In this document: piece by piece, positions 8,534-59,886 of the stretch
How positions within the stretch are numbered: position 1 is the stretch's first letter
How the letters are laid out: every line of letters starts with the position of its first letter
IMG/VR virus record: IMGVR_UViG_3300037418_003024
Coordinates: 30,732 to 94,731 of that record
DNA from: a virus
Strand: one strand, 5' to 3'
Length of the DNA: 64,000 nucleotides
Position numbers and translations under genes: made by a program
The notes under the pieces: model-generated
What the model saw: only the letters and a program-made list of their open reading frames with translations
The model's database searches: none
What the model was told of the DNA's origin: nothing

Positions 8534-8535
8534 CG

Positions 8536-11319: not shown

Positions 11320-11678
11320 TGCCGTCCGCGTTCACACGGTGGGGAGCGATGAAGCCGGGCCCGATCTCGTCACCCAATAGTTGGCGTCGAGGAGTGGGGT
11401 ATGTCGACAACGTCACGCCTGTCGGCGCCATCGACGGGGTGAACAAGATATACACGCTCGTCGATTCGACTGGAGCGGTGAAAGCGCCAAATCCGGCGGC
11501 GTCGCTGCTTCTACTCGCCGACGGTAATGCCTGCGTGCAGAACGGCCCCGCGGCCGATCCTTCCGGCAATCCGATGTTTACGTACACGTTGAGCGGCGAC
11601 ACGGTCACTTTCAATAATGCGCTGCCGTCGACCGTTGTCACGCTCAAGGCCTGGTTCCGATACAAGCTGGGGAGTTGA
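11319..11678 (+). CDS. Small beta-rich virion/tail-associated protein
   Basis: GAIDGVNKIYTL...YTLSGDTVTFNNA pattern resembles tail-associated repeats; location. Confidence 0.5.
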   Translation: MPSAFTRWGAMKPGPISSPNSWRRGVGYVDNVTPVGAIDGVNKIYTLVDSTGAVKAPNPAASLLLLADGNACVQNGPAADPSGNPMFTYTLSGDTVTFNNALPSTVVTLKAWFRYKLGS

Positions 11679-11680
11679 AA

Positions 11681-40476: not shown

Positions 40477-41784
40477 TTGCTCAGCCACAAATCCGCCGAA
40501 AGCGACCGCATGCTCCGCAATTATGCTCGAACGCGTGACCGTCGTCTCCGTGATCAGCTCGTTGAGTCTCACCAAGGCCTTGTTCGCATGGCCGCTCAGG
40601 GCTTTATCGCTCTCGGTGAGCCGTTCGACGACCTGGTGCAAGTCGGCAACATCGGGCTGATCGGCGCCATCGATCGATTCGAGCCGAGCCGCGGGTTGAA
40701 GTTTACGACCTTCGCACTCCCCACAATCGCCGGTGAGATTCGCCGTTACTATCGGGATAAAGTCGCGGCAGTCAAGGTGCCGCGACCAATGCGCGAGCTT
40801 TCGTATAAAGTGACGAGGGCAGCCGACCAATTGACAAGCCGCTTTGGGCGTGATCCCAGCGAAGAAGAAATTGCCGAGCATCTTAGCATACACGTTGGGG
40901 CGGTAAGAAACGCCATTCGTGTCGCCTTGACAATGCGCGTTGAATCCCTTGACGCGGAGATAGGCGACAGCGAAGGTGGTATGTCGCGCCTGGATGTCGT
41001 CGGTTCGGACGACCCGGGCATTAAGCGGGTGGTGGAGCATGCGGACCTTCAGCACGCCTTATCGCTGCTATCGGAGACTGACCAGAAGTTGTTGCGTCTG
41101 CACTACTTCGACGAGAAGACCCAACACCAAATTGCCGAGGCGATTGGGATATCGCAGATGCAGGTGTCCAGGCTCTTACGACGGGCAGTGTGCAAACTTC
41201 GCACGGCAATGACCGAACCTGAAAAGCTCGAACGAATACAACCGAAAGCGAGGAAACGATTGGAGAACAAACCGCAAACAGTGACCGACCAGACCTTCAC
41301 GCCGCCGGTGAACTGGCCTGATGATAAAGGATATCTGCTCGATCAGGAACAGCGAGTGCTCGAACTGACCTACTCAGGCAACGGGGCATACGTGCCACCC
41401 GGCTTTATAGCGAAAGAGATGCAGATCTCGAAGCAACGCGTCTATCAGATCCGTGGATCGGTGCTCAATAAACTCGCTGGGTTGCGGGCGGCTAATCGCG
41501 ACGAGTACATCGCGCATTTGACGACCGTTCGCCATCGGCGTAGCCACATTGAGGATGAAGTCGCCCGTGCGCCAGTCGTGGCAGTCACTCCGACGCCTGT
41601 GTCGGTCGAGCCGGTGATCACACCCGTGGAATCGGCTTCGGTCGATAGGCTGCCCTCCGTGCACACTGGCGTCTGCGCCCTGCTGTCATTCCGCGGCGAC
41701 GGTATCAATATCGAAGTTCAGGCCGCATCACTCGAACAGGTCAAACGCTTCGTGCAACTCGTCGAGGTTGCCGAAGCCGCATAG
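40477..41784 (+). CDS. SigB/SigF/SigG-type sigma factor with C-terminal extension
   Basis: DDLVQVGNIGLIGAIDRFEPSRGLKFTTFALPTIAGEIRRYYRD; TQHQIAEAIGISQMQVSRL. Confidence 0.92.
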   Translation: MLSHKSAESDRMLRNYARTRDRRLRDQLVESHQGLVRMAAQGFIALGEPFDDLVQVGNIGLIGAIDRFEPSRGLKFTTFALPTIAGEIRRYYRDKVAAVKVPRPMRELSYKVTRAADQLTSRFGRDPSEEEIAEHLSIHVGAVRNAIRVALTMRVESLDAEIGDSEGGMSRLDVVGSDDPGIKRVVEHADLQHALSLLSETDQKLLRLHYFDEKTQHQIAEAIGISQMQVSRLLRRAVCKLRTAMTEPEKLERIQPKARKRLENKPQTVTDQTFTPPVNWPDDKGYLLDQEQRVLELTYSGNGAYVPPGFIAKEMQISKQRVYQIRGSVLNKLAGLRAANRDEYIAHLTTVRHRRSHIEDEVARAPVVAVTPTPVSVEPVITPVESASVDRLPSVHTGVCALLSFRGDGINIEVQAASLEQVKRFVQLVEVAEAA

Positions 41785-41819: not shown

Positions 41820-43847
41820 GTGGAAATCGATCTGTACGGCACAACTCAACCCGCCATGGCGGGTCCGGAGAAGGTCGACTTGTCGGAACTCTTCGACTTG
41901 CTGGACCGGGCTGTCGAGCAGCGGCCAGCGGCTATCAAGCAGGCTGTAGTGTCGGCGGCCGAGCAATCGGGCGTATGGCGCGATGGCAAGCCTCCGATGC
42001 GGTTCGATGAGTTCTGCATCGCCCTTGACCCGAAGACAGCTCTGTTTCCTCGACAGTTGTGGGTCTTTGACCAGTGCGGGATGCTCGATCCCTGGAACTG
42101 GATTCGGCCCGACAAGAAGTTGACCGAGTTCGTATTGGAATGGGGTAAAGGGTCGGGTAAGGATTTTATCGCCTCTCGCGTTATTGCCTACTTTACTTAC
42201 GTCATACTTCACATCGCGTGGGACAAGCCTAATTGGAAAACGCCCGCAGAGTTTTACGGGAGAGCAGCAGATTCATTACTCGCGATCGTAAACATAGCAC
42301 CCAATGCGAGGCACGCTCAAAGAGTCTTCTTCGGTCAGTACCTCTCTAAGTGGTTCAAACACGAACTCTTCGCGCCCTTCAAACCGTTCATCGGGAAGGA
42401 AGAAGTCAGCTTTTACACCGAAGCTGAACTTGCCCGCTCTGCGGCGACAAAGGGCCGTGAACGTCCGTTGCCGTGGTTGGTTTGTTATTCCCTCCACTCT
42501 CAAAGCTCAGGCTTTGACGGCATGAACGTGTTGGCGTGGGTGATGGACGAAGCCGATGACTTTCTAGATACCGAGAACCGGTCGCTCGCTGATGAGCTTT
42601 ACGATGTTCTAAAGGCCTCGGCTGGTACACGTTTCAATGATCGATGGCTCGGCGTCGTCATCAGTTATCCGAGGATCGAAGGCGGCTTCATGGAGCGTAC
42701 GTATGCTACGGCCGTGAAGCGCATGAAGGAACTCGGGCCCAATACTTCCGTGATTGCCGACAAAGCCGCGACTTGGGACGTTAACACCGAGACAAAACGC
42801 GATTCAGCCACGGTTTTAGAGCAGTACGAGAAGGATCCTGCCCATGCCCGGGCAATGTACGAGTGCATGCCAATGAAGACCGAAGAGGCCTTCTTCGACA
42901 TGCCCGACCGCATCACGGCTGCCGTCGACGATTCGCGCTCGCCGATCGCGCTCGTCAAAGAAGAGTACGTCGAGTTCAAGAAGAACGACGGTTCGACTTC
43001 CTACTTCATCTCGGCTTCCATCTCCAATATCGTCCGCAAGCCCGGTCACGCGTATTACCTCGGCGGGGACGCCGGCAAAGACGGGGACGCGTTCGCCCTG
43101 TCCGTCTTCCATGTCGACACCAACGATGGCGCGTTCGAATGGATCTGCCCGCGATGCGCACTGCAGAACCCGACGTTGCGGTCGTACGGCGACTACTCGC
43201 TGCAGGGCGATGTCCGTATCCCTGTCGATCAGAATATCCGTTGCGGCTCCTGCGCTGGCACGCCCCAGGATTACGCCGGCGGTTGGACGTCGGGCGTTGT
43301 CTCCGTCCGCGACTGGTGGCGCCGGTCCGATCGCGCGGAGTCGGCCCTGATTACGCCCGGCGGCGAAGTGCGCAAGTCGTTCAACGTGCCTCATGTGTAC
43401 GAAGACCTACTCGTCCGGATTAAGCCGGTCCGCAAAGTGCGCTCGCACGACGTCGAGCGCCCCGTCTACTTCCCTGGCGTGCAGGACCTCTGCTATGAGC
43501 TCATGGTGGGGCTGGGTATCGCCGTTGCCCGGTTCGACCCGTGGCAGACCGCGACCATCACGCAGGGCCTGATGTCACGCACGGGCGGTGACGTCGCGGA
43601 AATCTCATTCTCACAGCCGGAGCAGTATAAGCGTGGCCGCCTGGTCAAGTACATGCTTTACGCCGACCTCATCACGCTCCTACCAAGCCCGATCCGCGAC
43701 AAAGAGTACGCACAACTGCAATCCAAGAATGGCAGCAAGCTCGACCATCCGCCGGGCGGCAGCAAGGACTGTTACGACGCGGAGAGCGTGGCTATCTGGA
43801 CGGCCGTCTCTTCTCATTGCAACGATATCAATCTCTTCTGGGGGTAA
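41820..43847 (+). CDS. terL: Terminase large subunit
   Basis: GKGSGKD Walker A, WVMDEAD Walker B, ISYPR, YLGGDAG, DHPPGGSKDCYDA. Confidence 0.9.
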   Translation: MEIDLYGTTQPAMAGPEKVDLSELFDLLDRAVEQRPAAIKQAVVSAAEQSGVWRDGKPPMRFDEFCIALDPKTALFPRQLWVFDQCGMLDPWNWIRPDKKLTEFVLEWGKGSGKDFIASRVIAYFTYVILHIAWDKPNWKTPAEFYGRAADSLLAIVNIAPNARHAQRVFFGQYLSKWFKHELFAPFKPFIGKEEVSFYTEAELARSAATKGRERPLPWLVCYSLHSQSSGFDGMNVLAWVMDEADDFLDTENRSLADELYDVLKASAGTRFNDRWLGVVISYPRIEGGFMERTYATAVKRMKELGPNTSVIADKAATWDVNTETKRDSATVLEQYEKDPAHARAMYECMPMKTEEAFFDMPDRITAAVDDSRSPIALVKEEYVEFKKNDGSTSYFISASISNIVRKPGHAYYLGGDAGKDGDAFALSVFHVDTNDGAFEWICPRCALQNPTLRSYGDYSLQGDVRIPVDQNIRCGSCAGTPQDYAGGWTSGVVSVRDWWRRSDRAESALITPGGEVRKSFNVPHVYEDLLVRIKPVRKVRSHDVERPVYFPGVQDLCYELMVGLGIAVARFDPWQTATITQGLMSRTGGDVAEISFSQPEQYKRGRLVKYMLYADLITLLPSPIRDKEYAQLQSKNGSKLDHPPGGSKDCYDAESVAIWTAVSSHCNDINLFWG

Positions 43848-43849
43848 CT

Positions 43850-45155
43850 ATGACGAACTTAAATGTACAAGTAACTTTCGCGCCTTCTGGTAGGAATGTC
43901 GAGTGTGAATGCTCGCCGGTGATCGCAGGGCTAATCGCCGATCTGCTTTTGGCGCAGTGTCCGGGCCATAACGAGAAGGTCGCAACGTTCACCGTTACGC
44001 CTGCACCAGAGCGCAGCCGGAACAAGACGAACCCAATTCCTGCTGAAGCGGCGTGGGTCGAACTCCCTACACAATGCGTCTGCGGCAAGCCTCACCCTCA
44101 TTTCATATTTTTGTCCAATGAGTTTATCAATTTCAGGCCGACTCAGTCGGTTAAATGCCAATCCTGCGGGTCGGTTTATTATCGGATGATGGGTCTGACG
44201 GATGACGAATGGTCAGAGTGGATCCTTCACCCCGCGCCCCCAGTTACAGTAGAGCCAACGAAGGTCGACGGACGACAGAAGGCGATCGAAGCGCTTCGCG
44301 CGGCTCTCGGCGAGATAAATTACCCAGTCAATTGCGTGGCGGATGCGCTCGCATGCGTTCATCTCGGCCTTCCGAAGTCGCCGGTTATCTCGGGCATGGA
44401 TGAAAACCTCCGCAAAACCGTCCGCTGCATCGAAACCGCCCTCTATCACCTCGGCTATGGCGACAAACCGGACCACCTCCAGGAGTAGCTGCGATGCCTG
44501 CGCACGACGGCGACATCCTGTTCCAGAAGACCTGGTGGCTCGGTCGGCGGCTCGAATGGACCGGGCACGCCGTCATGCGGTCGGGCGAGCGTTGCGTTCC
44601 GATCTTCACTCACTTGCCGCGTCACGCGAAGCTATACCACATCCAGGATACGCCGGAGGGCGTCATTGCTCTCTGGCAGATTTGGCACAACGATGCGCCG
44701 TACGTGATAGTCGGCAAGGCGGCCATGGATACCCATAGGCAGGAACCGGTCATCACGGTCAAGACGTGCTACGTCGAGGACCTGATGGCCAAGATCGTCG
44801 AACGCCGGATCGAGCATCGACGCCAACAGAGGACCGCTCAGCGTGCGCAGCGGCGAACGCATCGTGAAGTCGACCGCGCGACGCACTCGCGAATTGAGCG
44901 GCTTCGGTATGCCCGCAAGGAGATTACCGGGCAGCGTAAGGCGGATCGGTACGAGGAGGACATGTGAACGAAACCCACTCGCCGAGTGAGCCGGCGAAGC
45001 GGCAGGACGGCGCCCATAACTGCCCGGAGTGCGCTTCGCCGCATACGCATCTGACCATTCACGGGCTCAACCAGGACAGCTACGAATGCGAGAATTGCGG
45101 GCACGAATTCGTGGTGCCGGTCAAGACCGTCGATCCTTCTAATCGTCATGCCTAA
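43850..45155 (+). CDS. Three hypothetical ORFs between terL and portal (43850-44488, 44494-44967, 44964-45155 Zn ribbon)
   Basis: Coupled ORFs; CxxC pairs in the first and third. Confidence 0.55.
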
Positions 45156-47055
45156 ACACCCGTCAACAATGCTCTCCCAGATTTACAGCGCGGCGGCGGC
45201 CGATTTGCCGCTCGATCTGACGCCGGCCATTCCTGACCGGTCGTTCCGCGAGCAGATGCGCTATCTGGTCTGGGATCGGTTCGCGACCGCACAGCAGGCG
45301 CACGCGATTCGTAAAGGGCTCGAGCTCCAATACGTCAAGGCCCAGAAGCGCGCGCTCGAAGCCCAGGAGCAGGACGCGGTTATCAACCCGACGATCGATT
45401 ATTGGGCGGCCGGGAATTCCACGCTCGGGGTTCGCGACCCAACCGGCACGACGTTCAGCGAGCTCCGCCGCCTGGCCTCCGATTGCGAGCCGGCGGCGTG
45501 CATCATTAACACACGCGTAGGGCAGGTGTCAGCGTTCGCTCAAAAGGCGGAGTTCCATCGCGCTCATGCGAAATCGCCCGGCTTCCGCGTCCGGATGACG
45601 AGTAAGGACGATAAGGCGACCGATGCCGACAAGAAGCGCATCGCGGAGCTCGAGCAATTTTTCGAGGAGACGGGGTACTGCCCCCCGCCGGAAGACGAAA
45701 TGCCCGAGGGGTGGGAACCAGGTCTCGAGTTCTTCCTGAAGCAACTCACACGGGATCGCCTCACCCTCGACTGGGTGGCCGTACGCCGATGGAAGTCGGC
45801 GGTGGACCCGAAGCGGTTCCCGATTGTGACATTCGCTTGTGTCGACGCCGGCCTCATTCGCCGTACGAAGAAGCAGATTCTCGGCGTGAAGGGACACCGG
45901 CTCATCACGGAGCCGTATGAGAATGAGCGGTCGAATATCTCGAAAGGTGACGCCAAGTTCGTTAAGCTCGAATACGAGGGTGGCCGAAAGCTCGAGGAGT
46001 ACACGGCGGAGGAAATGTTCTGCGCTCGCGCCCGGCCGCGTACGGACATAAAGGTTAACGGTTACGGCTACTCGGAGCTCGAAGAGGCCATCAACTGCAT
46101 TTCGGGCTGGATCTCATCGAGGAACTACAACCTCTTCCGATTCGACAAAGACAGCCTCCCGCGAGGCGTTTTAACAATCCTTGGGCAGTTGAACCAGCAG
46201 CAATTCGACTCGTTCACGATGATGTGGCGCCAGATGTTCGAGGGCGGCGCGAAGCGGTGGGCGATCCCGATTATCCGCGGCAATCCCGTCGCCGGCTCGT
46301 CGGTCAACTGGACGCCGTTCGACCTGTCGAACCGCGAGATGGAGTACTCGCAGTTCCTGTTCACGATCGCGATTTGGCTGCACGCCATTTACCAGATCCA
46401 TCCCGACGAGACAGGTTTCTCGGCCGCGTCGCCGTTCCGGCCTCCGCTGTCGGAGAGCTCGCCGGAAGTCGACTTGGAGGCGTCCCAGGACAAGGGGCTA
46501 ACGCCACTTTTGCGGTGGATCGCCGGTCTAATCAATCGTAACATCCTCTGGGTGATCGAGCCATCGCGCCGGTACACGTTCGAGTTCGTCGGCACCGGTC
46601 ATTGGGACGAGGCGCAAGATACCGAGGTGCGCGGGAACCGGCTGAACTTCGGGTTGACCACTCCGCGCATGGAGTGGAACGAGCTCGATCAGCAGATCCC
46701 GGAATCGATCGCCGACCACCCGGCCTGGGATATGCCGATGACGTTCGCCGCTGGCGTGCAGCTTCTGCAGTCGATGCAGCAGGCACAACAGCAGCAGGAC
46801 ATGGCGGAGCAGCAGCAGCAGGCCCAATTGCACCAGCAAACGATCATGGCGCACAACGCCAATCAGTTCGCGGGTGGGGGCGACGGCGAGGAAGGCAACG
46901 GCGATCAGGGGGCCGGTCAGGCGATGGGTGGTGCTCAAGCGCAAGGCGTTCCGCCGGGCATGATGCCGAAGTCGCCGAAACCGGGTGGTGCGATGCCGAT
47001 CGCAAAAGCTGTGACCTTCAGATCGGTCGTGATTAAAGGGGTGCTGAAACGATGA
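45148..47055 (+). CDS. Portal protein
   Basis: IINTRVGQV, RDRLTLD, GYGYSELE, PRGVL, REMEYSQFL, SQDKGLTPLL; Q-rich tail. Confidence 0.88.
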   Translation: MPKHPSTMLSQIYSAAAADLPLDLTPAIPDRSFREQMRYLVWDRFATAQQAHAIRKGLELQYVKAQKRALEAQEQDAVINPTIDYWAAGNSTLGVRDPTGTTFSELRRLASDCEPAACIINTRVGQVSAFAQKAEFHRAHAKSPGFRVRMTSKDDKATDADKKRIAELEQFFEETGYCPPPEDEMPEGWEPGLEFFLKQLTRDRLTLDWVAVRRWKSAVDPKRFPIVTFACVDAGLIRRTKKQILGVKGHRLITEPYENERSNISKGDAKFVKLEYEGGRKLEEYTAEEMFCARARPRTDIKVNGYGYSELEEAINCISGWISSRNYNLFRFDKDSLPRGVLTILGQLNQQQFDSFTMMWRQMFEGGAKRWAIPIIRGNPVAGSSVNWTPFDLSNREMEYSQFLFTIAIWLHAIYQIHPDETGFSAASPFRPPLSESSPEVDLEASQDKGLTPLLRWIAGLINRNILWVIEPSRRYTFEFVGTGHWDEAQDTEVRGNRLNFGLTTPRMEWNELDQQIPESIADHPAWDMPMTFAAGVQLLQSMQQAQQQQDMAEQQQQAQLHQQTIMAHNANQFAGGGDGEEGNGDQGAGQAMGGAQAQGVPPGMMPKSPKPGGAMPIAKAVTFRSVVIKGVLKR

Positions 47056-48948: not shown

Positions 48949-49365
48949 ATGGCTTACGGTGGAGCGAACATGCTGGTGTCGCAGGCGTCGAGCAATCGAG
49001 CGCCGATGTACTCGGACGCGGTCGTCGACGGGCAGGGGTTCCTGAACGCGACTACCAGTAAGACGATTACGGTCAAAGACACGGCCGGTAATCAGGCGTT
49101 CGCCGCGTCGGTGCTCATCGTCAATTCGAGCGGGCAGGCCGCCACCGTGCAGATTAACGCCGTGCGCGGTGTCGCCGGTAAGAATGGGAACGAAGTCCAC
49201 CAGCCCGTGCCGGACGAGCCCGTCAATCCGATCTACATCGCGTCTGGCGAGTCGTTCGGGCCGATTCCGGTTCGGATGTACTCTATCGTCGAAACCAACG
49301 TCGGAGCTGCCATTCAAACTGGGCGCGGCGTACGCTATCTCTTTATCCTGGAGGCTGGGAAGTGA
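48949..49365 (+). CDS. Hypothetical virion-type protein
   Basis: Beta-rich ORF with GAGG RBS. Confidence 0.5.
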   Translation: MAYGGANMLVSQASSNRAPMYSDAVVDGQGFLNATTSKTITVKDTAGNQAFAASVLIVNSSGQAATVQINAVRGVAGKNGNEVHQPVPDEPVNPIYIASGESFGPIPVRMYSIVETNVGAAIQTGRGVRYLFILEAGK

Positions 49366-51194
49366 AACTGAGACTTGCTGTACTATGCGCGATTGCGCTC
49401 GCGCTTATTTCGCCTTGCTGGGCACAGTCCTATACACCTCCTACGAGTATATCGGCGATTCCAGGCCTCCAATCTACACTCGATCGGAACGCGTATTCCG
49501 CAGGCGGGGTGCAGGTGGCTGGCTCGACGGCCTGTTTCAATATCGCGTCGTCGTCGACAAGCGGCACGGAGACGGGCCTCTCGTCACGCGCGGCGTACTG
49601 GGCTCCTGCCGCCATCAACACCCTGTCACTCGTAGAGTTGGGCTATCAGGTAGATCCAACGTCGATCGAGGATATCCTTATCCCCAACTATGTGACGGTC
49701 CGGCGTGCCATCGAGTACCCATCTGGGACGTATTGGCCGATTTACTACCAGAGTGGCCGTGACCTGACTCTTAATCCAGGGCAGCGGTCGGTGTCCTGCC
49801 CGCTAGAGGTTTCGATACCTGGACAGGCGTCATATTCAGTCAACGACAACTCGGCAACGTCGCAGGTCTTTGTGACCACGTGCCCGACAACGGGGTTGCT
49901 CGTTCCAGCTAACGGCGACAGGGTGATTTGGACAAGTGGGACGTGGTCGGGTTGGGTGTCGTACGTTTTTTCGTACAACACGGGTACGAAACAGATCACG
50001 CTTCTGACCAGCTCAATTCCGCCCGCTGCGCCGGCGAACGGCTCGACATTTACATTGCAGAAATGTTTCTGGATTCGGTCGTGGGTTCGCACTCCCAACA
50101 CCGGCGGCAACAACAATGGCGGAACCGAAAAGATCCTATATAACCGGCGAATGAACGGTATCAGCGAGGGTTCTACAATCGGAACCTCTACGACGGACCA
50201 GACGACGTCTGGGACGATCAGCAGCTCGCAGGGTTATGTGTTTGAGCCCTACGTAATCGCCGGTCGAGCGGTCAACCATGACATCCCTGGAGTAGCGCTG
50301 TGGGGCGACTCGATCTTCGCCGACAACGGCCTGGTTATTGGTGATACCGAGGCTCCCTCTCGGGCGCTCCGAACAGTGGCAGGTATCGTCAACACATCGA
50401 GGTCTGGATACCTCGCCCACACGTTCGCGGCAACTGTTCAGAATGTTGAATGGTCGCTCCAGGCTGCGGAGAGCTGCCAATTTGCGATTTGCGATTTAGG
50501 CCGCAACGACCTGACCAACATCCAAAATAGCGTTGCCGGGTACAGCTATGCCCAATTGCAAGCCGACCTGATTACCGTCTGGAAGCGCGGTTCTGATCGC
50601 GGCCTCAAAGTCTATCAAACGACGATCCTGCCGAAATCGACTTCGACGGATGGGTATCTGACAACGGCCAACCAGACGACGGACGCCACTAACACTAATC
50701 GCGTTTCGCTTAACACGTGGCTGCGCGCCGCGGCGCCGTGCCTACTACAGTCGGACGGTTCGTACCTGGCGTGTGCCATCGGCACGACGGGTGCGGTCCC
50801 GTGCCCATATTTGTACGGCGTCATCGACTGGTGTCCGTATGTTGAAACGTCCACTGGCTCAGGAATTTGGAAGGCGAGTTTGGCGACTACGGCGACCTCG
50901 ACGGTAACAAGTTCCTCAACCGGCTCGACGATCACGGATACGGGATCGTCTTATGTGTCTAACGTTCTCACCAACCAGATCTTTGTCGTTACGAGCGGGG
51001 TGTCGGCGGGGCAGGTTGCTACCATTACAGGGAACACAGCGACGACGATCTCTTTGGGGACGTCACTGACCGTCAACGCAGGCGACAGCTACAGGGTTAC
51101 TGAGACGCTGACGAAAGACGGGGTGCACCCAACGTACTGGAGCAACGGACTGTTACTGCCAGCGTTCCCGGCAAGCTTGTTCCCGCTTCCCTAA
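49362..51194 (+). CDS. SGNH/GDSL hydrolase-domain protein with signal peptide, S/T-rich
   Basis: MKLRLAVLCAIALALISPCWA-Q; WGDSI, LGRND, TILP, DGVHP. Confidence 0.8.
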   Translation: MKLRLAVLCAIALALISPCWAQSYTPPTSISAIPGLQSTLDRNAYSAGGVQVAGSTACFNIASSSTSGTETGLSSRAAYWAPAAINTLSLVELGYQVDPTSIEDILIPNYVTVRRAIEYPSGTYWPIYYQSGRDLTLNPGQRSVSCPLEVSIPGQASYSVNDNSATSQVFVTTCPTTGLLVPANGDRVIWTSGTWSGWVSYVFSYNTGTKQITLLTSSIPPAAPANGSTFTLQKCFWIRSWVRTPNTGGNNNGGTEKILYNRRMNGISEGSTIGTSTTDQTTSGTISSSQGYVFEPYVIAGRAVNHDIPGVALWGDSIFADNGLVIGDTEAPSRALRTVAGIVNTSRSGYLAHTFAATVQNVEWSLQAAESCQFAICDLGRNDLTNIQNSVAGYSYAQLQADLITVWKRGSDRGLKVYQTTILPKSTSTDGYLTTANQTTDATNTNRVSLNTWLRAAAPCLLQSDGSYLACAIGTTGAVPCPYLYGVIDWCPYVETSTGSGIWKASLATTATSTVTSSSTGSTITDTGSSYVSNVLTNQIFVVTSGVSAGQVATITGNTATTISLGTSLTVNAGDSYRVTETLTKDGVHPTYWSNGLLLPAFPASLFPLP

Positions 51195-51704
51195 TGGATA
51201 AAATCCTCAAATCCGCCGTTATCGGTGAGCACACGATGTTTCTGCGGACGGAGCCCGGGAAGAAGCCGGGTCTTCCGTCCGCCTTCGTTATGGAGTGCGT
51301 GGACTGCGGGCACATTCCGGAGAACGGCGACCGGCGCATTCCGAAGCGGCTGCACGAGTGGACCGATTGCAACCAGCCGGAGGCCGAGGCCCGCTTCCAG
51401 CGCGAGGCGATTAACCACACCTCGCACGCATCGCTCTGGGGGCAGATCCAGGGATTGGTCGGAATGTAGGTTCCGGTTTCGTCCATTCGATGCGAGTGGC
51501 TGTTTGGAGGGCTACATGGAAGAAAAAGCACTTTACGTTACTGAACGGCCGCCGAATGCGGAAGAGCAAATCGATACATGGGTCCGTGGGATCCGTCCGA
51601 TAGTAACGAAGCAAATGATTTACTGGATCAAAGAACAGTTCCCGTGGCTGGACGACGCTGAGGCGGCGCGGGCGGTTCTTAGCCTAATGCATGGAGCAAG
51701 GTAG
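51194..51704 (+). CDS. Two small hypothetical ORFs (51194-51469, 51516-51704)
   Basis: TAATG coupling / GGAGG RBS. Confidence 0.5.
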
Positions 51705-51733
51705 ATCTGCTGGCCTGGGGGCAGGACGGCAAC

Positions 51734-54700
51734 ATGTTAATCATAATCAAGGGACTGACGTACACTCACGGGATGCGACAATCGCCAGAGTCGTATCTCA
51801 AGTGGGCGCACGTCCCGTCAGGGCTCTCGAATGATCAGATCATCGAGCACGTCAAGCGCAAGCGAACTGAGCGTTTCGACGAACAGAAGGAAGAACCGGA
51901 AGTCGATCACGAATTCGGGACCGCTCCGGCGGCGTCCGAAGAGGACGACCGGAAGAACCTGCGTCGATTCGGTGGCGGGGCCGGCGCCGTCATCTCGGGA
52001 TTGGTCGCAAAGCGCGGCGGAGACCCGCGGGGCGGAAGGCCCGCAAAGGCTGCGACGCCAGCTCGCCCGAAGTATGGCATCACGCCGTCCGGACAGATGA
52101 CGATGTTCAAAGCCGTGATCATCACCGGACTGTCGAAGGCTCTAATGTCGGAGGAGTGGCTGCGCACGCAAGCCGCCGCCCGCCGCACCAATCGCATGCC
52201 AACCGAAGCCCAGACCAAGGCCGGAAACTACCGCAAGGGCAAGGTCCGTCTGCACGGCCTGACGATCTCGATCGAGACACCAGCGGGCGCATGCCGCCGC
52301 GGCAAGGATCGGAACGGCAAAGACTGGTCGGTCCAACTCAAGTACCCCTACGGTTATATCAACCGCACCGAAGGTGCCGACGGCGATCACGTCGACGTCA
52401 TCATCGGCCCACACCCTGAAGCGGAACTCGCCTACGTCGTCGATCAGACGAATGAGAATCGCACCTTCGACGAGCATAAAGTCGTCCTCGGCGCTCTCAC
52501 GAAGGCAGAAGCCCGTGACATCTACCTGAGCAATTACTCCCCGGGTTGGGACCGCATTGGCGCGATCACGCCGGTGTCGTTGCCGAGGTTCAGGTTCTGG
52601 TTGCGGGAAGGTGATCAGAATCAACCGTTTGCATTGACGATGCATGAGGGTTTGTGCAAGGCGGTCGACGCCAAACCGACATTGTCGAAGGAGAGTGTCC
52701 ATTACCGCAAGTCGGACAATATCGGTAAGCACTGCTGCGGTAACTGCTCCATGTTCCGACTACATCCGCCCGATTTCGAGACCGGTTGCTGCACGCTCGT
52801 GAAAGGCGTCATCAACGATCACTACATCTGCGATGAGTGGGAGTCGGCGAAACTATCGAAGGCTGTCGACGTTGGCTGGCATGGAGTAGACCTCGATGGA
52901 ACCTTAGCTCATTACGACGGATGGAAGGACGGAGAGATCGGCGCGCCTGTCCCTAAGATGGTTGCTCGTATCAAGCGTTGGCTTCGAGATGGAGAGGGCG
53001 TTAAGATCTTCACAGCTCGTGTGTCCGATGATCCAGGCGGGAACCAGCGTCGAAAGATTCAGGCGTGGTCAAAAAATCACCTTGGCGTTGAACTTCCTGT
53101 GACACACGAAAAAGATCACACCATGATTGACCTATGGGATGATCGTGCGAGGCGGGTGCGCAAGAATTCCGGCGAGCTCGTCAAGCCAATTATTGTCGTC
53201 GGACTAGGCAAGTCGGCCAAGTTCGACGAAGGCGAAGTTTGTCCGCATTGCGGTGCCGTCCACGAAGAGGACGGATACAGCGGGAAGTGCAATTCGTGCG
53301 GGAAAGAGCGCGGCGGTAAGAAGGTGCCGGAAAAGTGGCTGAGGAAGAGCCTGAGCGAGCCCACACCCACTCCACCAGTATTCGACGGTGGTACACGGGG
53401 CAACCGGGCTCACTCAGTGCCGGCTCCGAAAGTACAGGGAATGACTGTCGAATCAGCACCCCACGTACCGGCTACGCCGAGTAAAGAGATTATACCTCGC
53501 CCGATCATCATCGTCGGCCTTTCGAAGGCCGTCAAACAGATGCGCGTGCCTGCTGGCGAGGAGTACACGAATCCAAAGACAGGCAAGACGATCAAAGGGG
53601 GGCAGTTCGCGCCACAGTCGTTCTTGTCGCTCAAATCCCCAGTGGTCCACATTCAGGGCGATGAGGTCTCGGCATCGACTGACATCAATACGATGCGGGT
53701 AGCGATGCACAACTACATGCGATCGAGCCTCCAGGGTAAGTCCTACGTGAACAGGGAGACCGGGCATTCGATCACAATTGCACGCTCCGGTATCAACCAT
53801 ATGACGACGTTCGGCCCGCTGAACCTGACTGTATTACAGTCATTGTATGCGCTTCCGAAATTGCTTGAGAATGCTGAGTACAGGGGAGAAATGCCGGACA
53901 AACGCGGTCGACATAACGTACGCATCCATTCGTTCAGCGCTGCCGTGCGCGTGGGTACACCCGGCACTCTTCACCATGTCCAGATGATTGTTCGGCAGGA
54001 TCCAAACGGGCACTGGTATTACCACCATATCCTTATCGGGATGGATGGTAATCGGCTGAAAAAAGCGGTAGGGGTTGAAAATGAGAACGGGAACCACAGG
54101 GCAGGGCGGTCGGCTAGGCCGATAACGCACGAGCTTAACGGGGGTTCCCGCAATTCTATTCTACCACTGCCCATCGTCATTGTCAACCTGCACAAGGGCG
54201 TCGATGTCGCTGATCGCCACACAAAGGCCATGGAACTTGGTGGCGGCAACCATGTCCTGTCGACCCTGCAGCGCCGGCACGGTGAGCACGACGGCGGCCC
54301 GACCGCTGGCCGGTCGTTCTGGCTCTATCCGAGCGGCAAGATGTCGAAGCCGATACACGGCGGCAACCACGAGGAGGCGGCCCGCGGTATCCTGCAGGCG
54401 CATGGTATCCCGCATGGTGATCATCCGACGGAAACGCTGATGAAGCACTCCGGAGCCATGCTGCTGGTGTCGCACAAGGGCGGCGAGGGTGCCCATGTCC
54501 ACGGACATCCGCCGATCACCCGGCCGCAAGCGGAGGCGGCTACGTCGTTCGCGGAGCGACATATCACGGACGGCGCGCCGGTGCGGTATACGCTGCACCA
54601 CAACGGGCAGCAGAAGGAGTGCCGGAGCGTCCAGCACATGACCGCGGAGTCGCTGCGGCAGATGCCGGCGGATCGCAAGCATCAGCCGGACCTATCACCA

Positions 54701-55282
54701 ATGTTGAAGGCTGTCGACAAGCACGACTCGTCGACAAGTGCGATGAGCTTCGACGAACCTGAAAAACCGATTCACGAAAAGATCCGGGATGCGTTCGGTC
54801 GCGCGGCAGGCAATCCGTACAAAATCAACCATTGGTATCACATGCCGATCGAGCACGAAGGTCGCACTCATCACTTTCTCGGTATGAAGAGCCGTGATGT
54901 TGCGCGACGGGGAAACGATGTCATCCGAATTCATCAACTTGCCGTCAAAAACGGAAGTCCTTATATTCGCAGGTTCCGACTGAAGACGAATAACGATCTC
55001 GTGCAAGATCGTGGTCTCGGAGGCGATAAGCACGATTACGGACATCTGGCCGATGTTGAGCGAATTCCGCATGAGCAATTCGAAGCCATTAGAAAGCATC
55101 ATGAAGAAACAATGATGGCGAAACTCTCTAAGGCGGCGACGACCTACGCGCCGATCGCCGACGGCTCGTACGTGCCTGGCTCGCACGACGCCGACCCGAC
55201 GGCGGACGTCGACCGGTTGGGCCTCGATCCTGGATTGGACGCGAATGGGTTGTTCGGGGACGAACTGCAGCCGTCCATCTGA
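51734..55282 (+). CDS. Large polyvalent protein 1: inorganic pyrophosphatase-like, HiPIP-like, HAD phosphatase, Zn ribbon, LPD3-like and His-rich modules
   Basis: GNYRKGK..YGYI.RTEGADGDHVDV..FDEHKV; CGNC..F..CTLVKG.I..C..W; VDLDGTL..FTAR..WDDRA; NRETG..I.I.RSGI.H..LPKLLENA. Confidence 0.82.
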   Translation: MLIIIKGLTYTHGMRQSPESYLKWAHVPSGLSNDQIIEHVKRKRTERFDEQKEEPEVDHEFGTAPAASEEDDRKNLRRFGGGAGAVISGLVAKRGGDPRGGRPAKAATPARPKYGITPSGQMTMFKAVIITGLSKALMSEEWLRTQAAARRTNRMPTEAQTKAGNYRKGKVRLHGLTISIETPAGACRRGKDRNGKDWSVQLKYPYGYINRTEGADGDHVDVIIGPHPEAELAYVVDQTNENRTFDEHKVVLGALTKAEARDIYLSNYSPGWDRIGAITPVSLPRFRFWLREGDQNQPFALTMHEGLCKAVDAKPTLSKESVHYRKSDNIGKHCCGNCSMFRLHPPDFETGCCTLVKGVINDHYICDEWESAKLSKAVDVGWHGVDLDGTLAHYDGWKDGEIGAPVPKMVARIKRWLRDGEGVKIFTARVSDDPGGNQRRKIQAWSKNHLGVELPVTHEKDHTMIDLWDDRARRVRKNSGELVKPIIVVGLGKSAKFDEGEVCPHCGAVHEEDGYSGKCNSCGKERGGKKVPEKWLRKSLSEPTPTPPVFDGGTRGNRAHSVPAPKVQGMTVESAPHVPATPSKEIIPRPIIIVGLSKAVKQMRVPAGEEYTNPKTGKTIKGGQFAPQSFLSLKSPVVHIQGDEVSASTDINTMRVAMHNYMRSSLQGKSYVNRETGHSITIARSGINHMTTFGPLNLTVLQSLYALPKLLENAEYRGEMPDKRGRHNVRIHSFSAAVRVGTPGTLHHVQMIVRQDPNGHWYYHHILIGMDGNRLKKAVGVENENGNHRAGRSARPITHELNGGSRNSILPLPIVIVNLHKGVDVADRHTKAMELGGGNHVLSTLQRRHGEHDGGPTAGRSFWLYPSGKMSKPIHGGNHEEAARGILQAHGIPHGDHPTETLMKHSGAMLLVSHKGGEGAHVHGHPPITRPQAEAATSFAERHITDGAPVRYTLHHNGQQKECRSVQHMTAESLRQMPADRKHQPDLSPMLKAVDKHDSSTSAMSFDEPEKPIHEKIRDAFGRAAGNPYKINHWYHMPIEHEGRTHHFLGMKSRDVARRGNDVIRIHQLAVKNGSPYIRRFRLKTNNDLVQDRGLGGDKHDYGHLADVERIPHEQFEAIRKHHEETMMAKLSKAATTYAPIADGSYVPGSHDADPTADVDRLGLDPGLDANGLFGDELQPSI

Positions 55283-55335
55283 TACCGCTATCCCTCTCTC
55301 TGGCTACTTCCACACGGGGGTAGGGGAGAGGGGAT

Positions 55336-58300
55336 ATGCTCATTCACGTCACCGGACTGCAAAAGGCCGTCGATCGCCGCGACAAGGGCGCCACGCTGGA
55401 CATGTTCGGCGAAGCGCCCCCTCAGTCGCCTCCGCCGGCCCCGAAGCAGAAACCCGCTGCCGTATCCGTTGCCGACCGCACAAAAAGCAAGGTCGACGCC
55501 GCGTTGGCGTCTGGCCATACCCCACTATCCCATGACACCCCAATTGGCTCGCACGTCACCGATCACGCGACCGGCGACAAGTTCGAGCTGATCAACCATA
55601 CCGACAATCGCGGGCCTCAGCTTCGCGAGATTGGCGGGAAGCGCCTTGTGTTCCCGATGGAGCATGGTGGCGGCCACGACTATACCGCGCACCCTCACGC
55701 CGCCGCCGGGCAGACCCAGGTCAACCCGAAGACGGGCAAGACGATCAAAGGCGGCCAGTTCGCGCCGAAGAGCGGAACTCCCCAGGGAAGTGAAACAACC
55801 CCCCAGGCAAAGCCGGAAACCCCCCAGGTTAGCGGCCCGCTGACATTCGATCAGCACAACGACTTCATCAAGCGACTCTTTGCTGGCGAAGCGTCGTCCG
55901 ATGAGCTCCAGCAGCATGCTGACGCCTATATCACCGATGAAGGCGCAATTAAGGCCGATCTCGGCAAGCACAAGGTTGACGATCTTCTGAAGATGATTGG
56001 CGGCTACGTCCACGATAAGAAGAAGTCCTCCCTGGTCGACCATGCCTACCATGATGGTCTGCAGCGGCTCGCTCTTGGGCGAACGATCTCGTACCAGTTA
56101 TTCGGGAAGGACACCTTCACGAGTGCCGCGCGCAAGGTCATCGCCGGCGTCACCGACGCCGATATCAAGAAGTTTGCTGAGGATCGAGCGGAGCGGATCG
56201 CCGCGCGGAAGCGTGCGCTGACCGACCCGCAGACGTACGACGAATTCCAGACGTTCATCCATTATCGCGGCGAATCGAAGCTGACGCCGGAACAGCGCGT
56301 GCGATGGGACGATCTGCAGGCGGAGCACAATCGGGGGCTCGGGGGCTTACCGTCAAAGCCAAAGGCGACCGGCAACGCGTCGTCTGCGGCGGTGGCTGGT
56401 GCCGGGATCACGGTCAAGGAATCTGTCCACACGAAGCACGGCTACCCGATCTGGATTGCCCAACTGCCGGCGCGCGTCGACCGAGACAAGTACAACGAAC
56501 TGAACGCCAAAGCAAAGGAACTGGGCGGCTACTACTCGTCCTATGGTTCGAAGGACAATCACGGTTTCACCTTCAAGTCGAAAGAGGCCGCCGACAAGTT
56601 TGCCGGGCAGGAAATCGCGGGCGCCGACAAGCCGGAAGCGGAACCGGCGGCGGAATCGGCCCCGGCTCCTGTGGAAGCGAAGCGAAACCCGACCGCGGAT
56701 AAACTACGCACCGTTGCCGATCGCATGCGCGAGAGGGCGGAAGAGAACCTGGGGCGTGAACGGGCGACCAACACGGCGAAACGGGCGCGTGAGGCCGGCT
56801 ATGCCGAAGAAGCGGCGCGCCGTGAGCTCGCCATGGCGAACACGCTGCAGAACGTCGCCGACGCGATCGAAACCGGCGAAGTGAAGCACCTGAACGGACT
56901 GACGTCGAAAGCTCAGGTCGAAGCCCTGAATACCGCGCTCAGCCGCGCGCACTGGGCTCACGTCAAGGCACGGCAGAAAGCCGGAGAGTTGGCCTATAAC
57001 GTCGATGCTGGCGATATTCCTACTACCGCGTCGGACGTCGATCACACTGACTATCCCTATCCGTATATCCACGGCTCTTATATCCGTGATGCCGCGGCCG
57101 AACTCGCTCAGAAGTCGGGTAAGAAGCGGCTGGCGGCGCGACTACAGGCGATGCCGATCGGTGATGGGTATGTGAAGAACTCTGAGCACATCCGCACACT
57201 GCAGGAGGCCGCCGAAGCGTTGAAGGGCGGCCGTGCGCACAGCCCTGGCGCGTACCTTAAAGATCGCATGGCCGATTATGACCGGCTGCATCGGATGGGT
57301 ATTAAAGATCTTCCGTCGCTCCGCGCGGCCTTGCGTGAGTTCCTGCCGCTACGTTCGGATCGGTCGAAGCCGGACCCGATCAAGGAGAAGGAGCGCGCGC
57401 TGATTGGCCGGAGGATTCCCGGCTACTTCCCGACTCCGCGCGAGCTCGCGCGCGACATCGTTCGCGACGCCGACATTCGACCCGGGATGCAAGTTCTCGA
57501 GCCGAACGGCGGCAAGGGCAATATCGCCGACGTCGTTCGGGACGAACACCCCGATGCGGATCTATCGACCGTCGAGCCGGTCCAGGACCTGCGCGACATT
57601 CTGACCGCCAAAGGCCATAAGCTGGTCGGACACGATTTCCTCGACCACGGCGAGCAATACGATCGCATCGTCATGAACCCGCCGTTTGAGAACCGGCAGG
57701 ATGTCGAACATGTAAGGCACGCTTACAACTTGCTCAAGCCGGGTGGCCGAATGGTCGCCGTCATGAGCGAAGGTCCGTTTGGTGGTTCCAGCAAGAAGGA
57801 TGAGGAATTCCGCGACTGGCTGATGTCCCACGGCGGCCGAAGCGAGAAACTACCGGACGGATCGTTTACGGGCGCCCAGGCGGAGCGTCAGACCGGCGTG
57901 AGTACTCGCAAGGTCATTATCGACAAGCCGAGGGAGGCTACCATGCCCATGTCGAAGGCCATTGTCGTTGCGGGGTTGTCGAAGGCGACGGACAAGCCCG
58001 GCGACAAGAGGCCGAAGTACCATGGTATCGCCCAAGCCATCGTGATCCTCGGCATCCGCAAGGCCGTTGACGCGCGCGATGCGTCGACCGGCGATCTCTT
58101 CTCGGGTAAGGACAATCCGACGGACCATACACGCTGTCGTATCTGCGGACGCAAGCTGCGCGACGATGTGAGCCGGCGCCGTGGCGTCGGCCCGGAGTGC
58201 TGGGAGAAGATCGGCCATCATGCCGCGGCCATTAAGAAGATGCCGCATCCGTCTAAAGTGCCGGGGGTAGGCAACCTGTCGATAGACTTCGACAAGGAAC

Positions 58301-59886
58301 CAGAAGCTGTCGCGACGCCGTCGGAGCCACAGTCCGACGAAGACGCTTACCTGCGCGAGAAGTACGGTACTCGCCCTGTTGCCGCGACGGGCCGGTATCT
58401 TGACCGAAAGCACCTCCAGGACCTGCGCGACCAGATCGAGCGCAAACAGGCGCAACTTGACCGCCTCAACGGACAGCAGGATCGCAACGGCGCACTGCCT
58501 GGAACGTTCGTCACCGGCCGTAGTGGGGTGTCCGCATCGTACAGCAAGAAGCTGAATCGGCAACTTGACCGAACGATTGACACCGCCGTCAACATCGTCG
58601 CCCTGACAAAGGAACTTCCTGAGCTCAAAAGGCGGCTCGAGCTGTATGAATCTGGCCGCATCAACGAGCAGGGGCGCACGATCGATTCGCCGTCAACGCT
58701 TCGTAAGCAGATAGCCGGCGCGGAATCGATCCTGTCGAGTGGGATGCTCAAGGGCAAGCCACTTACGGCGGAGGACCGATCGGCCATACGCGATATTCTC
58801 AAGTCGGCGAAGGAACGGTTGAAGCGGATCAAACCGGAGGACTACGCGCCGGAGGATACTGGGGTCGAGAAGTCCGTCGCCTCCATCATCATCAACGGGC
58901 TCCGCGCGGCCGGCAAGAAGTCCGCGAAGACTATCCCATCGACGGCGCCCGGCGTCACGGCCGGTAAGACGTCCGCGCAAGCGCCGATACACGAGATCCA
59001 TTCGCCGATCACCGGGGCCATGCAGTCGCACAAGTTCACGTGGCACCAGGTCGCCCACCGGACCGAGAAGGGGCCGGGAGGCGAGTACGGCCACTTCTCG
59101 CATCTACTCTCGCACGCGAACCCGCAGGCGGCCATGGAGAAGATGCGCACGCACCTCGCGTCGACCGGGCACACCGTGAGCGAGGTGAAGCGGAACCGGA
59201 TTACGCAAGGGGACAAGACGAAGCACGTCTACCAGTTCCAGGCGCACAAGGACGGGCAGATGCATACGTTCACCGCAGCGAAGATGGACGCGCCAGTGTC
59301 GGCGTCGGCCGGCGGCTCAAACGCGGGACCAGTGCCGTCGGCGAAGCCCGTCGCCGATATGCTGTCCAAGATGGGGCATCCCGTGTCAAAGAGTACCGAC
59401 GATCCGTTCGGAGCTCACCTCTCGAACCTCGGCTTCAAAAATCACTCGTTCAGCCGGAGTGGCGACACGTTCACGCATACGATGGACCATCACTCACCGG
59501 ACAGTTCCGCCGCAGATCTTGGTAACTTGTTGAAGTCGCGCGGGCATTCGTTGGGAGATAATCCTTACGAGCTACTGTCGCGTCAAGCGGCGAACGCGTC
59601 ATCGAAGGTTGGCCCGAATCGGCCTACTCATGCGCCGTCGAGTTCGGTACGACTGACGAGCCAATATAAGGGCATCACGCACCATTGGAACATTAACAAG
59701 GTGGCCGGTAATCGCCCCGGCGGCCCGCTACGGGAGCGGCCGGAGTTGCCGATCGGGAAAGAGCCGAAGATGATGGCGAAGGCGGTCGTCGTGGTCATGA
59801 ACCGCCGACTGTGCCGATCGTGCGGCCGTCCGTCCGACGGGGCGGAGTGCTACGCGTGTCTGGGGAAGGCGTTGGTGGGTGGGTAA
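55336..59886 (+). CDS. Large polyvalent protein 2: DNA N6-adenine methyltransferase, DUF6011-like Zn finger and unknown modules
   Basis: YFPTP..VLEPNGGKG..YDRIVMNPPF..LKPGGRMVAVM; CRICGRKL.D..S..RGVGPEC; terminal CRSC..CYAC. Confidence 0.82.
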   Translation: MLIHVTGLQKAVDRRDKGATLDMFGEAPPQSPPPAPKQKPAAVSVADRTKSKVDAALASGHTPLSHDTPIGSHVTDHATGDKFELINHTDNRGPQLREIGGKRLVFPMEHGGGHDYTAHPHAAAGQTQVNPKTGKTIKGGQFAPKSGTPQGSETTPQAKPETPQVSGPLTFDQHNDFIKRLFAGEASSDELQQHADAYITDEGAIKADLGKHKVDDLLKMIGGYVHDKKKSSLVDHAYHDGLQRLALGRTISYQLFGKDTFTSAARKVIAGVTDADIKKFAEDRAERIAARKRALTDPQTYDEFQTFIHYRGESKLTPEQRVRWDDLQAEHNRGLGGLPSKPKATGNASSAAVAGAGITVKESVHTKHGYPIWIAQLPARVDRDKYNELNAKAKELGGYYSSYGSKDNHGFTFKSKEAADKFAGQEIAGADKPEAEPAAESAPAPVEAKRNPTADKLRTVADRMRERAEENLGRERATNTAKRAREAGYAEEAARRELAMANTLQNVADAIETGEVKHLNGLTSKAQVEALNTALSRAHWAHVKARQKAGELAYNVDAGDIPTTASDVDHTDYPYPYIHGSYIRDAAAELAQKSGKKRLAARLQAMPIGDGYVKNSEHIRTLQEAAEALKGGRAHSPGAYLKDRMADYDRLHRMGIKDLPSLRAALREFLPLRSDRSKPDPIKEKERALIGRRIPGYFPTPRELARDIVRDADIRPGMQVLEPNGGKGNIADVVRDEHPDADLSTVEPVQDLRDILTAKGHKLVGHDFLDHGEQYDRIVMNPPFENRQDVEHVRHAYNLLKPGGRMVAVMSEGPFGGSSKKDEEFRDWLMSHGGRSEKLPDGSFTGAQAERQTGVSTRKVIIDKPREATMPMSKAIVVAGLSKATDKPGDKRPKYHGIAQAIVILGIRKAVDARDASTGDLFSGKDNPTDHTRCRICGRKLRDDVSRRRGVGPECWEKIGHHAAAIKKMPHPSKVPGVGNLSIDFDKEPEAVATPSEPQSDEDAYLREKYGTRPVAATGRYLDRKHLQDLRDQIERKQAQLDRLNGQQDRNGALPGTFVTGRSGVSASYSKKLNRQLDRTIDTAVNIVALTKELPELKRRLELYESGRINEQGRTIDSPSTLRKQIAGAESILSSGMLKGKPLTAEDRSAIRDILKSAKERLKRIKPEDYAPEDTGVEKSVASIIINGLRAAGKKSAKTIPSTAPGVTAGKTSAQAPIHEIHSPITGAMQSHKFTWHQVAHRTEKGPGGEYGHFSHLLSHANPQAAMEKMRTHLASTGHTVSEVKRNRITQGDKTKHVYQFQAHKDGQMHTFTAAKMDAPVSASAGGSNAGPVPSAKPVADMLSKMGHPVSKSTDDPFGAHLSNLGFKNHSFSRSGDTFTHTMDHHSPDSSAADLGNLLKSRGHSLGDNPYELLSRQAANASSKVGPNRPTHAPSSSVRLTSQYKGITHHWNINKVAGNRPGGPLRERPELPIGKEPKMMAKAVVVVMNRRLCRSCGRPSDGAECYACLGKALVGG

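Follow-up and report, generated by a model that had tools for sequence, protein, structure and literature searches.

How does a phage come to carry two giant proteins, each a string of unrelated effector domains, and could the short peptide that recurs between those domains be the place where they are parted? These questions are raised by a stretch of 64,000 nucleotides (here called the window, meaning the whole stretch), which forms the final 64 kb of one 94,731-bp phage record (IMG/VR record IMGVR_UViG_3300037418_003024, positions 30,732 to 94,731). Two intact open reading frames (ORFs) of the window encode P0001 (51734..55282, 1182 residues, about 11 segments) and P0002 (55336..59886, 1516 residues). 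On the strength of sequence comparison we consider it probable that both are cargo chains, loaded into the capsid and cut at a recurring core motif by the phage's own prohead protease, g16 (genome positions 11517-12578, outside the window), into separate effectors. Coordinates are those of the window unless genome positions are named; the linkers and the P0001, P0002, portal and terminase genes all lie on the plus strand.

What are the giants made of? With several unrelated effector domains per chain, among them InPase and LPD3, they are polyvalent proteins in the sense of Iyer, Burroughs, Anand, de Souza and Aravind (2017), who defined the class with these two signature domains (PMC5512222). 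P0001 consists of a charged N-terminal segment, InPase (PF18823 in Pfam, residues 158-290, E 9e-47), a Cys-rich segment of 67 residues, a HAD-like module, a Zn ribbon, a Pro-rich segment, LPD3 (PF18798, residues 650-763, E 4e-20) and four segments with no assigned fold. P0002 opens with a 10-residue leader, followed by a methyltransferase (MTase) module (residues 11-874), a double linker, DUF6011 with a coiled coil, modules with no assigned fold and a C-terminal Zn ribbon. The MTase module holds an S-adenosylmethionine methyltransferase (residues ~680-870) within a block matching giant phage 'DNA methyltransferase' PHROGs (163-873), and Pfam places DUF6011 at residues 930-960; DarB-like and giant MTase PHROG families are matched by the giants as well. 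Zinc-ribbon-like CxxC segments are present in the giants, and Pfam searches on single inter-linker segments added weak zinc-ribbon matches only.

An earlier note on this DNA, made from the letters alone, had listed most of these domains. InPase, LPD3, MTase, DUF6011 and the zinc-ribbon-like CxxC segments were recovered; the HAD-like assignment is weak, being based on a DLDGT motif and a weak PHROG match, and a 'HiPIP-like' module was not confirmed. As to the comparison with MuF-associated proteins, no match to MuF (PF04233) was obtained in the giants or the tested neighbours. Differences in composition between modules, first seen by eye, found modest support: the G+C content at third codon positions (GC3) of the modules spans 0.525-0.80, and it falls below the 5th percentile of 150-codon windows from other genes in two of them (residues 377-493 and 993-1133).

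Where, then, does the recurring peptide stand? All 17 copies listed earlier were found at, or within a few bases of, the places assigned to them (arrows mark the bond predicted to be cut). P0001 starts with the hydrophobic leader MLIIIK↓GL (51734..51757). Its InPase module lies between a double-site linker, MFK126↓AVIITGLSK135↓A (52103..52141), and the linker GLCK309↓AVD (52649..52669); KLSK376↓AVD (52850..52870) precedes the HAD-like module, and the full linker KPIIVVGLGK493↓SA (53183..53218) and the core site WLRK538↓SL (53336..53353) follow. LPD3 is enclosed by the full linker RPIIIVGLSK598↓AV (53498..53533) upstream and the core site RLKK777↓AV (54053..54070) downstream, after which come the full linker LPIVIVNLHK821↓GVD (54167..54205) and the core sites PMLK992↓AVD (54698..54718) and AKLSK1133↓AA (55118..55138). 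In P0002 the N-terminal leader MLIHVTGLQK10↓AVD (55336..55374) is separated by the whole MTase module from a double-site linker, MSK874↓AIVVAGLSK883↓AT (57949..57990), and a full linker, QAIVILGIRK909↓AVD (58033..58071), stands ahead of DUF6011. Further on lie a degenerate linker, EKSVASIIINGLR↓AAGKK, with R rather than K at P1 (58867..58911), MMAK1482↓AVVVVM ahead of the terminal Zn ribbon (59770..59799) and the C-terminal core site CLGK1511↓AL (59857..59874). The contention that the motif marks domain boundaries thus holds where borders are known: K135 and K309 flank InPase, K598 and K777 flank LPD3, K874/K883 follow the MTase and K909 precedes DUF6011. Two core-only matches, K257 and K357, fall inside modules, a number close to chance expectation.

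To what extent could such a motif arise by chance? We defined a core motif, [LIM]xK[AS], and a strict extended motif, [LIVMFA]{3}.?[GN][LI].K[ASG], and derived expected counts from composition-preserving shuffles. The core occurs 11 times in P0001, against 1.54 expected (Poisson 7e-7), and 8 times in P0002, against 2.8 (p 0.008). The strict motif gives 7 and 4 overlapping matches in P0001 and P0002, respectively, which correspond to 6 distinct copies, where shuffles yield 0.018 and 0.027; in a crude gene set, the other 28,653 residues of the genome contain none. A related pattern, [LIM]xK[AG]V[DGK], is found 8 times in the two giants and once elsewhere, in a third giant, g9, which has an SNF2-type helicase (genome 3207-8441). 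Synonymous codon positions vary among the motif copies, so the repeat is kept at the protein level, by selection on the peptide; a DNA-level repeat, a recombination site and a recent DNA duplication are ruled out by the same differences. An excess of Met upstream of the sites (10/21 against a background of 22%) was discarded as biased, since the core itself allows M at P3.

Genome-wide, exactly four proteins have an excess of the core: P0001, P0002, the protease g16 (8 vs 0.62) and g17, an acidic scaffold-like protein (genome 12579-13259; 9 vs 0.53), with a pooled rate ratio of 9.0 (Fisher p 2e-17). The earlier note had posed the question of whether only head proteins have the motif, capsid or scaffold among them, and the motif is indeed enriched only in the giants, the protease and the scaffold, with further copies in the propeptide of the major capsid protein (MCP) and at the C-terminus of the portal protein. 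In the MCP (g18, genome 13320-14996) both core matches, WINK39↓S and NLEK49↓ALTTG, lie within the first 50 residues, and in the portal protein (45148..47055) the two matches, MMPK608↓SP and PIAK620↓AV, are near the C-terminus. The sites of the giants and those of the morphogenetic proteins have in common L, I or M at P3, K at P1, A or S at P1' and a hydrophobic residue at P2', and the string LRK↓SLS is common to a giant (K538) and the scaffold. Most likely, this core (with G sometimes at P1') is the recognition site of g16, which would cut after the Lys.

At P4 the giants' sites have a G in addition, and P5-P8 are taken up by a hydrophobic run. Could strand and G-L-x-K-A together be a folding or assembly element, bundling modules or docking them on the capsid interior, rather than a cleavage site? 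The composition of the run is strand-like and the run is specific to the giants, being missing from the scaffold, protease and MCP sites; for the same reason it does not seem to be needed for cutting. A purely structural linker would leave unexplained why the scaffold, the protease and the MCP propeptide have the core, the hydrophobic P2' and LRK↓SLS in common with the giants, and why several border sites of the giants (K309, K376, K777, K992, K1133) consist of the core with no hydrophobic run. We judge this explanation decidedly unlikely.

Is g16 a prohead protease? It has a weak PHROG protease match, and by tblastn it matches annotated prohead proteases of Herelleviridae (Lactobacillus and Bacillus myophages). 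A library of 1.84 billion proteins yielded 477 homologues; 8 of 40 aligned homologues match Peptidase_S78_2 (PF14550). An AlphaFold2 (AF2) model built with 40 homologues has a predicted local distance difference test (pLDDT) above 90 over residues ~30-165, and a fold search with it returned T4 gp21 (5JBL) and herpesvirus assemblins with probability 1.0, whereas a profile search of the g16 family against PDB sequences gave no match. H68 and S125 are invariant in the 40 homologues and form the candidate catalytic pair. Judged by its model and by the Pfam matches of its homologues, g16 is a prohead serine protease of the assemblin/T4 gp21 fold and of a Peptidase_S78_2-like family. Two of its own core sites are invariant or nearly so across the family: K175 (AIAK↓AL), where the protease domain ends, and K271 (xxK↓ALTTG), in a low-confidence, presumably flexible stretch of the model. 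Among the homologues, P0056 is 78% identical, and P0058, a 452-residue fusion of protease and scaffold whose protease domain is 59% identical (or 51%, as measured in alignment A3), keeps the same scaffold sites, LRK↓SL, LEK↓AL and LSK↓S.

A further feature of the protease is its tail. Residues 268-295 copy the predicted mature N-terminal arm of the MCP (RLEK↓ALTTGNSIVQPGDSGGAALRVQNL, compared to NLEK↓ALTTGANIVQVGDTGGTALRMQFL in the MCP), and conservation of the copy extends through the protease family to the members in Bordetella phage vB_BbrM_PHB04 and in the IMG/VR locus L008, two relatives described below. By mimicking the capsid arm, the tail may anchor the protease in the prohead.

The MCP is distantly homologous to Herelleviridae capsid proteins, and the HMMER alignment pairs its NLEK49↓A50LTTG with DVVK24↓S25FQTG of the MCP of Staphylococcus phage 812. 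The latter is deposited as a chain of 463 residues (5lii) and as one of 439 residues (9row), the shorter of which begins at S25 by alignment offsets. In SPO1 gp6.1 (9vel), LNK↓ALEAG occupies the position matching the K49 site. From these alignments we infer that the MCP of the present phage probably matures by a cut after K49. With homologous MCP, portal and protease and an aligned MCP site, the system resembles the Lys-directed capsid maturation of Herelleviridae and HK97 type seen in phage 812 and SPO1. It differs in that we found no report for those phages of effector modules strung together by such a site; neither host range nor the remainder of the genome is related.

These elements can be combined into one sequence of events. 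g16 is predicted to cut the MCP propeptide (LEK49↓A50), about nine scaffold sites, its own C-terminal tail and the C-terminus of the portal. The giant chains would enter the prohead, where the protease would cut P0001 into about 11 pieces and P0002 into 5-7, and the separate enzymes would then be ejected with the DNA. In four linkers the hydrophobic strand has a site on either side (MFK↓AVIITGLSK↓A, MSK↓AIVVAGLSK↓A, MMAK↓AVVVV and the Q900K strain variant described below), and from these a 9-residue strand would be excised. The hydrophobic run itself, 4-5 residues just before the Lys and extended here by G-L-x, would be a short loading or recognition tag that is removed by the cut. Packaging, actual cleavage, strand targeting and ejection are steps that we infer.

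A tag of this kind has a precedent in phage T4, where a capsid targeting sequence (CTS) leads the internal proteins (IPI-III, Alt) and is cut off by gp21. Short N-terminal leaders ending at the core occur in the giants (MLIHVTGLQK↓A, MLIIIK↓G), four times in PHB04 and once in L008 (MKLIILK↓S), and in this they are like the T4 CTS and the propeptides of phiKZ and SPN3US ejection proteins, which end at the motif of the protease (PMC9026906, PMC10052503). As in T4, phiKZ and SPN3US, the motif recurs in capsid, scaffold and protease; loading and trimming of cargo are, for the present phage, predicted from sequence. Unlike the T4 type, the predicted specificity is Lys followed by Ala or Ser rather than a cut after Glu, and the enzyme belongs to an S78_2-like family rather than S77, within the same fold. 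The leader, moreover, is reused internally many times here, so that the substrate would be a true polyprotein: the known substrate cuts in SPN3US give N-terminal propeptides only (PMC10052503), whereas one chain here would give about eleven pieces. A targeting role of the hydrophobic strand, based on its N-terminal position in relatives, is a possibility to be taken seriously, if not the outcome we would expect.

Could some other protease cut the linkers? For polyvalent proteins, packaging and delivery alongside the DNA have been predicted, as has a need for processing into units (PMC5512222). The enzyme that Iyer et al. proposed for this is an internal zincin metallopeptidase (MPTase) or, rarely, a C-terminal assemblin-like peptidase, either being typical and not obligatory (PMC5512222). 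The present proteins resemble theirs in being giant and multi-domain, in their virion-gene context and in their InPase, LPD3, methyltransferase and SNF2-type helicase (g9) domains (PMC5512222). They depart from that model in that no internal peptidase was found and the linkers carry, next to a hydrophobic leader, the probable site of a prohead protease that has a gene of its own; the word 'linker' does not occur in the text of their paper (PMC5512222). Several modules of the giants lack an assigned fold, which leaves room for an unrecognised peptidase, and a host enzyme could be invoked as well. However, Pfam detects no peptidase domain in either giant, whose sole HExxH sequence (HEKDH) is inside the HAD-like module, and the motif agrees with the sites in the morphogenetic proteins that the phage itself encodes. 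Xanthomonas phage Rb1, included as a negative control for its polyvalent proteins beside an M12B metallopeptidase and its different head system, contains no such motif. Cutting by an enzyme other than g16 therefore appears very improbable to us.

Do relatives of this phage carry the same motif? In PHB04 (NC_047861, Phabquatrovirus, 94,005 bp) the head module runs, as here, from the portal through small effectors, the MTase giant and the helicase giant to the protease, the scaffold and the MCP, although BLASTP matches at E <= 1e-4 are limited to the portal, the InPase domain and the helicase giant, at 27-47% identity. Its core sites appear in the MCP (ELQK↓ALQA), at the portal end (ELQK↓AFG), in the scaffold (7 vs 0.53) and in the protease (5 vs 0.56). 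Effectors of PHB04 begin with a leader: (M)IVFLK↓AQVA in the HD hydrolase, (M)GAVVLLK↓ADAW in InPase, MIILLTK↓AQLA in the MTase giant and MKPILFLK↓ASKI in the helicase giant, with an internal RVLLFFK↓ADNH in a RelA/SpoT protein. This leader pattern is found in 5 of 124 PHB04 proteins, against 0.24 expected, and four of the five lie within the head-module cluster. PHB04 and the present phage thus share head synteny, the occurrence of K↓A in the MCP, the scaffold, the protease and the portal, and a leader with K↓A on effectors; they differ in that PHB04 effectors are separate genes, its giants are not multi-site and its leader, hhhhhK↓A (h, hydrophobic), lacks the G-L-x insert. From residue 72 onward, g9 aligns with the PHB04 helicase giant from residue 2, so its ALVK78↓AVD corresponds to the PHB04 leader, placed here after a propeptide of 50 to 78 residues.

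The locus L008 (47% GC) represents a third, more distant lineage. Its protease and scaffold are rich in core sites (4 vs 0.53 and 7 vs 0.96, respectively), and its MCP has PMMK↓ALTTG and two further propeptide sites. The upstream giant starts with MKLIILK↓SVRHEPAG, and an internal KKAVIIVK↓AVRHEPAG stands between InPase and a topoisomerase I core; the core count of the giant is 13, against 4.5 expected. In view of the N-terminal leaders of PHB04 and the internal copies of L008, the linker looks like a T4-CTS-like leader that was kept when genes fused. We propose that the giants formed by in-frame fusion of leader-bearing genes, by which each old leader would have turned into an inter-module linker.

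L008 was obtained by searching with the smaller protease alignment, A3 (alignment A2 was too diverse), as the one useful viral locus beside two short metagenome contigs; a scan of genome contigs with A3 gave no match, and a scan with a portal alignment recovered PHB04 alone. Close relatives of P0001 or the MCP were not found in IMG/VR, nor did megablast against phages and plasmids return a match. Among homologues that share only InPase or MTase, the strict linker was not found; a few have hhhh-K-[AST] variants (P0017, P0008, P0049).

If the internal copies are remnants of leaders, do they still work? It could be that only the N-terminal ones do and that the giants, like N4 vRNAP, stay whole in the virion. 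The PHB04 leader is found almost exclusively at N-termini and the PHB04 giants have no excess of internal sites, the known substrate cuts of SPN3US all remove N-terminal propeptides (PMC10052503), and several internal copies here have a Met just upstream (MFKAV, MPMSKAI, MMAKAV), one of them with a GGAGG Shine-Dalgarno sequence. Against mere remnants, K-A/S has been kept at the internal copies despite differing synonymous codons, a strain about 5% diverged overall has hardly any change in the double linker region, and L008 independently keeps internal leader copies. Since g16 is predicted to cut many internal sites in the scaffold, an N-terminal position would not be required. That all internal copies have fallen silent is unlikely in our estimate, and we continue to favour cutting of the giants by the prohead protease.

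The same Met residues allow another thought, namely that the giants are compressed operons in which units with a Met-leader are re-initiated, giving separate proteins in the absence of proteolysis. Within P0002, at 57930-57951, a strong GGAGG precedes ATG870 by 5 nt and ATG872 by 11 nt; it stands immediately upstream of the MSKAIVVAGLSK linker and is followed by MPMSKAIVVAGLSKAT. The site may be what is left of a former gene start, or it may still work as an internal start, with a product of 645-647 residues. Only one of about 15 linkers, however, has a usable Shine-Dalgarno sequence and start codon, and most have no Met at all (KPIIVVGL, RPIIIVGL, LPIVIVNL). Internal initiation is thereby ruled out for all linkers other than that at P0002 870/872, and as a general account of the giants it is extremely improbable.

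Does the cargo vary between strains? Contigs of four sequencing runs were compared with the stretch. One contig from a root RNA library, X5 (959 nt, depth 13), matches 51567-51863, continues with 185 other letters and then matches 54242-54718. In it, 2378 nt (51863-54242) are replaced in frame, so that codons 44-836 of P0001 (793 codons) give way to 62 codons, a net loss of 731, and the InPase, Cys-rich, HAD-like, Zn ribbon and LPD3 modules are removed. The contig would come from a near-identical strain with a P0001 that is short of at least five modules. A second X5 contig (1835 nt, ~5% diverged) has, among the differences listed, Q900K as the only change across the double linker and many changes from 58176 onward; Q900K creates an added K↓A site, K↓AIVILGIRK↓A. 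Each of these strain variants is a single contig, and presence in an RNA library is no proof of transcription. The linker had been described earlier as a plug-and-play junction for gaining or swapping cargo, and the separate leader-bearing genes of PHB04, the internal leader copies of L008 and the one in-frame block replacement in P0001 support that description.

A broader proposal follows, which we offer as a tentative one: strand and L-x-K↓A/S may be a portable 'load-and-cut' cassette across the whole clade with S78_2-type prohead proteases, whose bearers are recruited and released, the cargo varying by in-frame insertion, loss and fusion. If so, the polyvalent proteins of this clade would be true viral polyproteins. 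Novelty would lie in the combination of polyvalent proteins with leader-tagged head cargo processed by the prohead protease, each part being known already. Polyvalent proteins are widespread in phages, and how their domains are activated has so far been answered by prediction only (internal metallopeptidases). The present test can be repeated in any genome, as one motif in MCP propeptide, scaffold, protease and cargo linkers implicates the capsid protease, and PHB04, a cultured relative with leader-tagged single-gene effectors, is a ready experimental system. If true, the explanation would supply a rule by which sets of injected effectors and the ends of mature proteins could be predicted from sequence, would account for the evolution of cargo repertoires by fusion and exchange of leader-bearing genes, and would provide a short tag for loading foreign proteins into phage heads of this class.

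Several observations weigh against cutting of the giants by g16. The excess of the core in P0002 is modest, and residues 11-874, most of its length, form one uncut block. PHB04 giants have no internal excess (4 vs 3.95; 3 vs 2.65), so multi-site cutting is not constant in the family. The sites in scaffold, protease and MCP lack the hydrophobic run. Only about four modules have known domain borders, and an AF2 model of P0001 made with no alignment (mean pLDDT 33) says nothing on such borders; the X5 breakpoints are not exactly at linkers. The cut site of phage 812 was deduced from deposited chain lengths and offsets and not taken from a paper, and the searched literature yielded no proteomic or biochemical data on the present phage or PHB04.

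From which virus does this locus come? The virus stretch was seen in rhizosphere and plant metagenomes of several studies and in the one root RNA library; small-share sequencing runs (X6-X10) were left out when the habitat was named. The source is an uncultured rhizosphere phage of about 95 kb with head genes of Herelleviridae type. A putative large terminase (41820..43847, weak PHROG match) lies upstream of the portal, which is the first gene of the head module holding the giants. The module runs on across the record end with g9, a sigma factor, g16, g17 and g18. The order protease, scaffold, MCP, and the position of the giants between the portal and, across the record end, the helicase giant, provide the virion-gene context.

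Some features of this and related genomes stand apart. In L008 (1172-1473) one InPase domain is divided between two ORFs: positions 2-54 of the Pfam profile close the first and 56-134 begin 22 residues into the next, with about 300 nt and an 87-residue ORF in the gap, which could reflect an intron, a mobile insert or a frameshift. Directly after the leader Lys, several stand-alone or giant effectors have a motif, [AST]-[HQ]-V-A-G-Y-x-R-x-D-G-x-x-V-x-x-[HY], seen at the N-termini of PHB04 gp032, gp049 and gp027 and in P0017 and P0046 (e.g. FLK↓AQVAGYTRQDGTVVSPY, LFTK↓SHVASYTRKDGAFVAEH); it is not in the giants of the present phage. Two sigma-factor-like proteins (phrog_351) are encoded in the present genome, one at 40477-41784, just upstream of the terminase, and one at genome positions 8484-9257, between the helicase giant and the protease. 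Finally, between portal and giants, an unusual location for it, lies a candidate secreted-type esterase (49362-51194), a 610-residue protein whose N-terminus resembles a signal peptide (MKLRLAVLCAIALALISPCWAQ) and which has an SGNH/lysophospholipase-like PHROG match.

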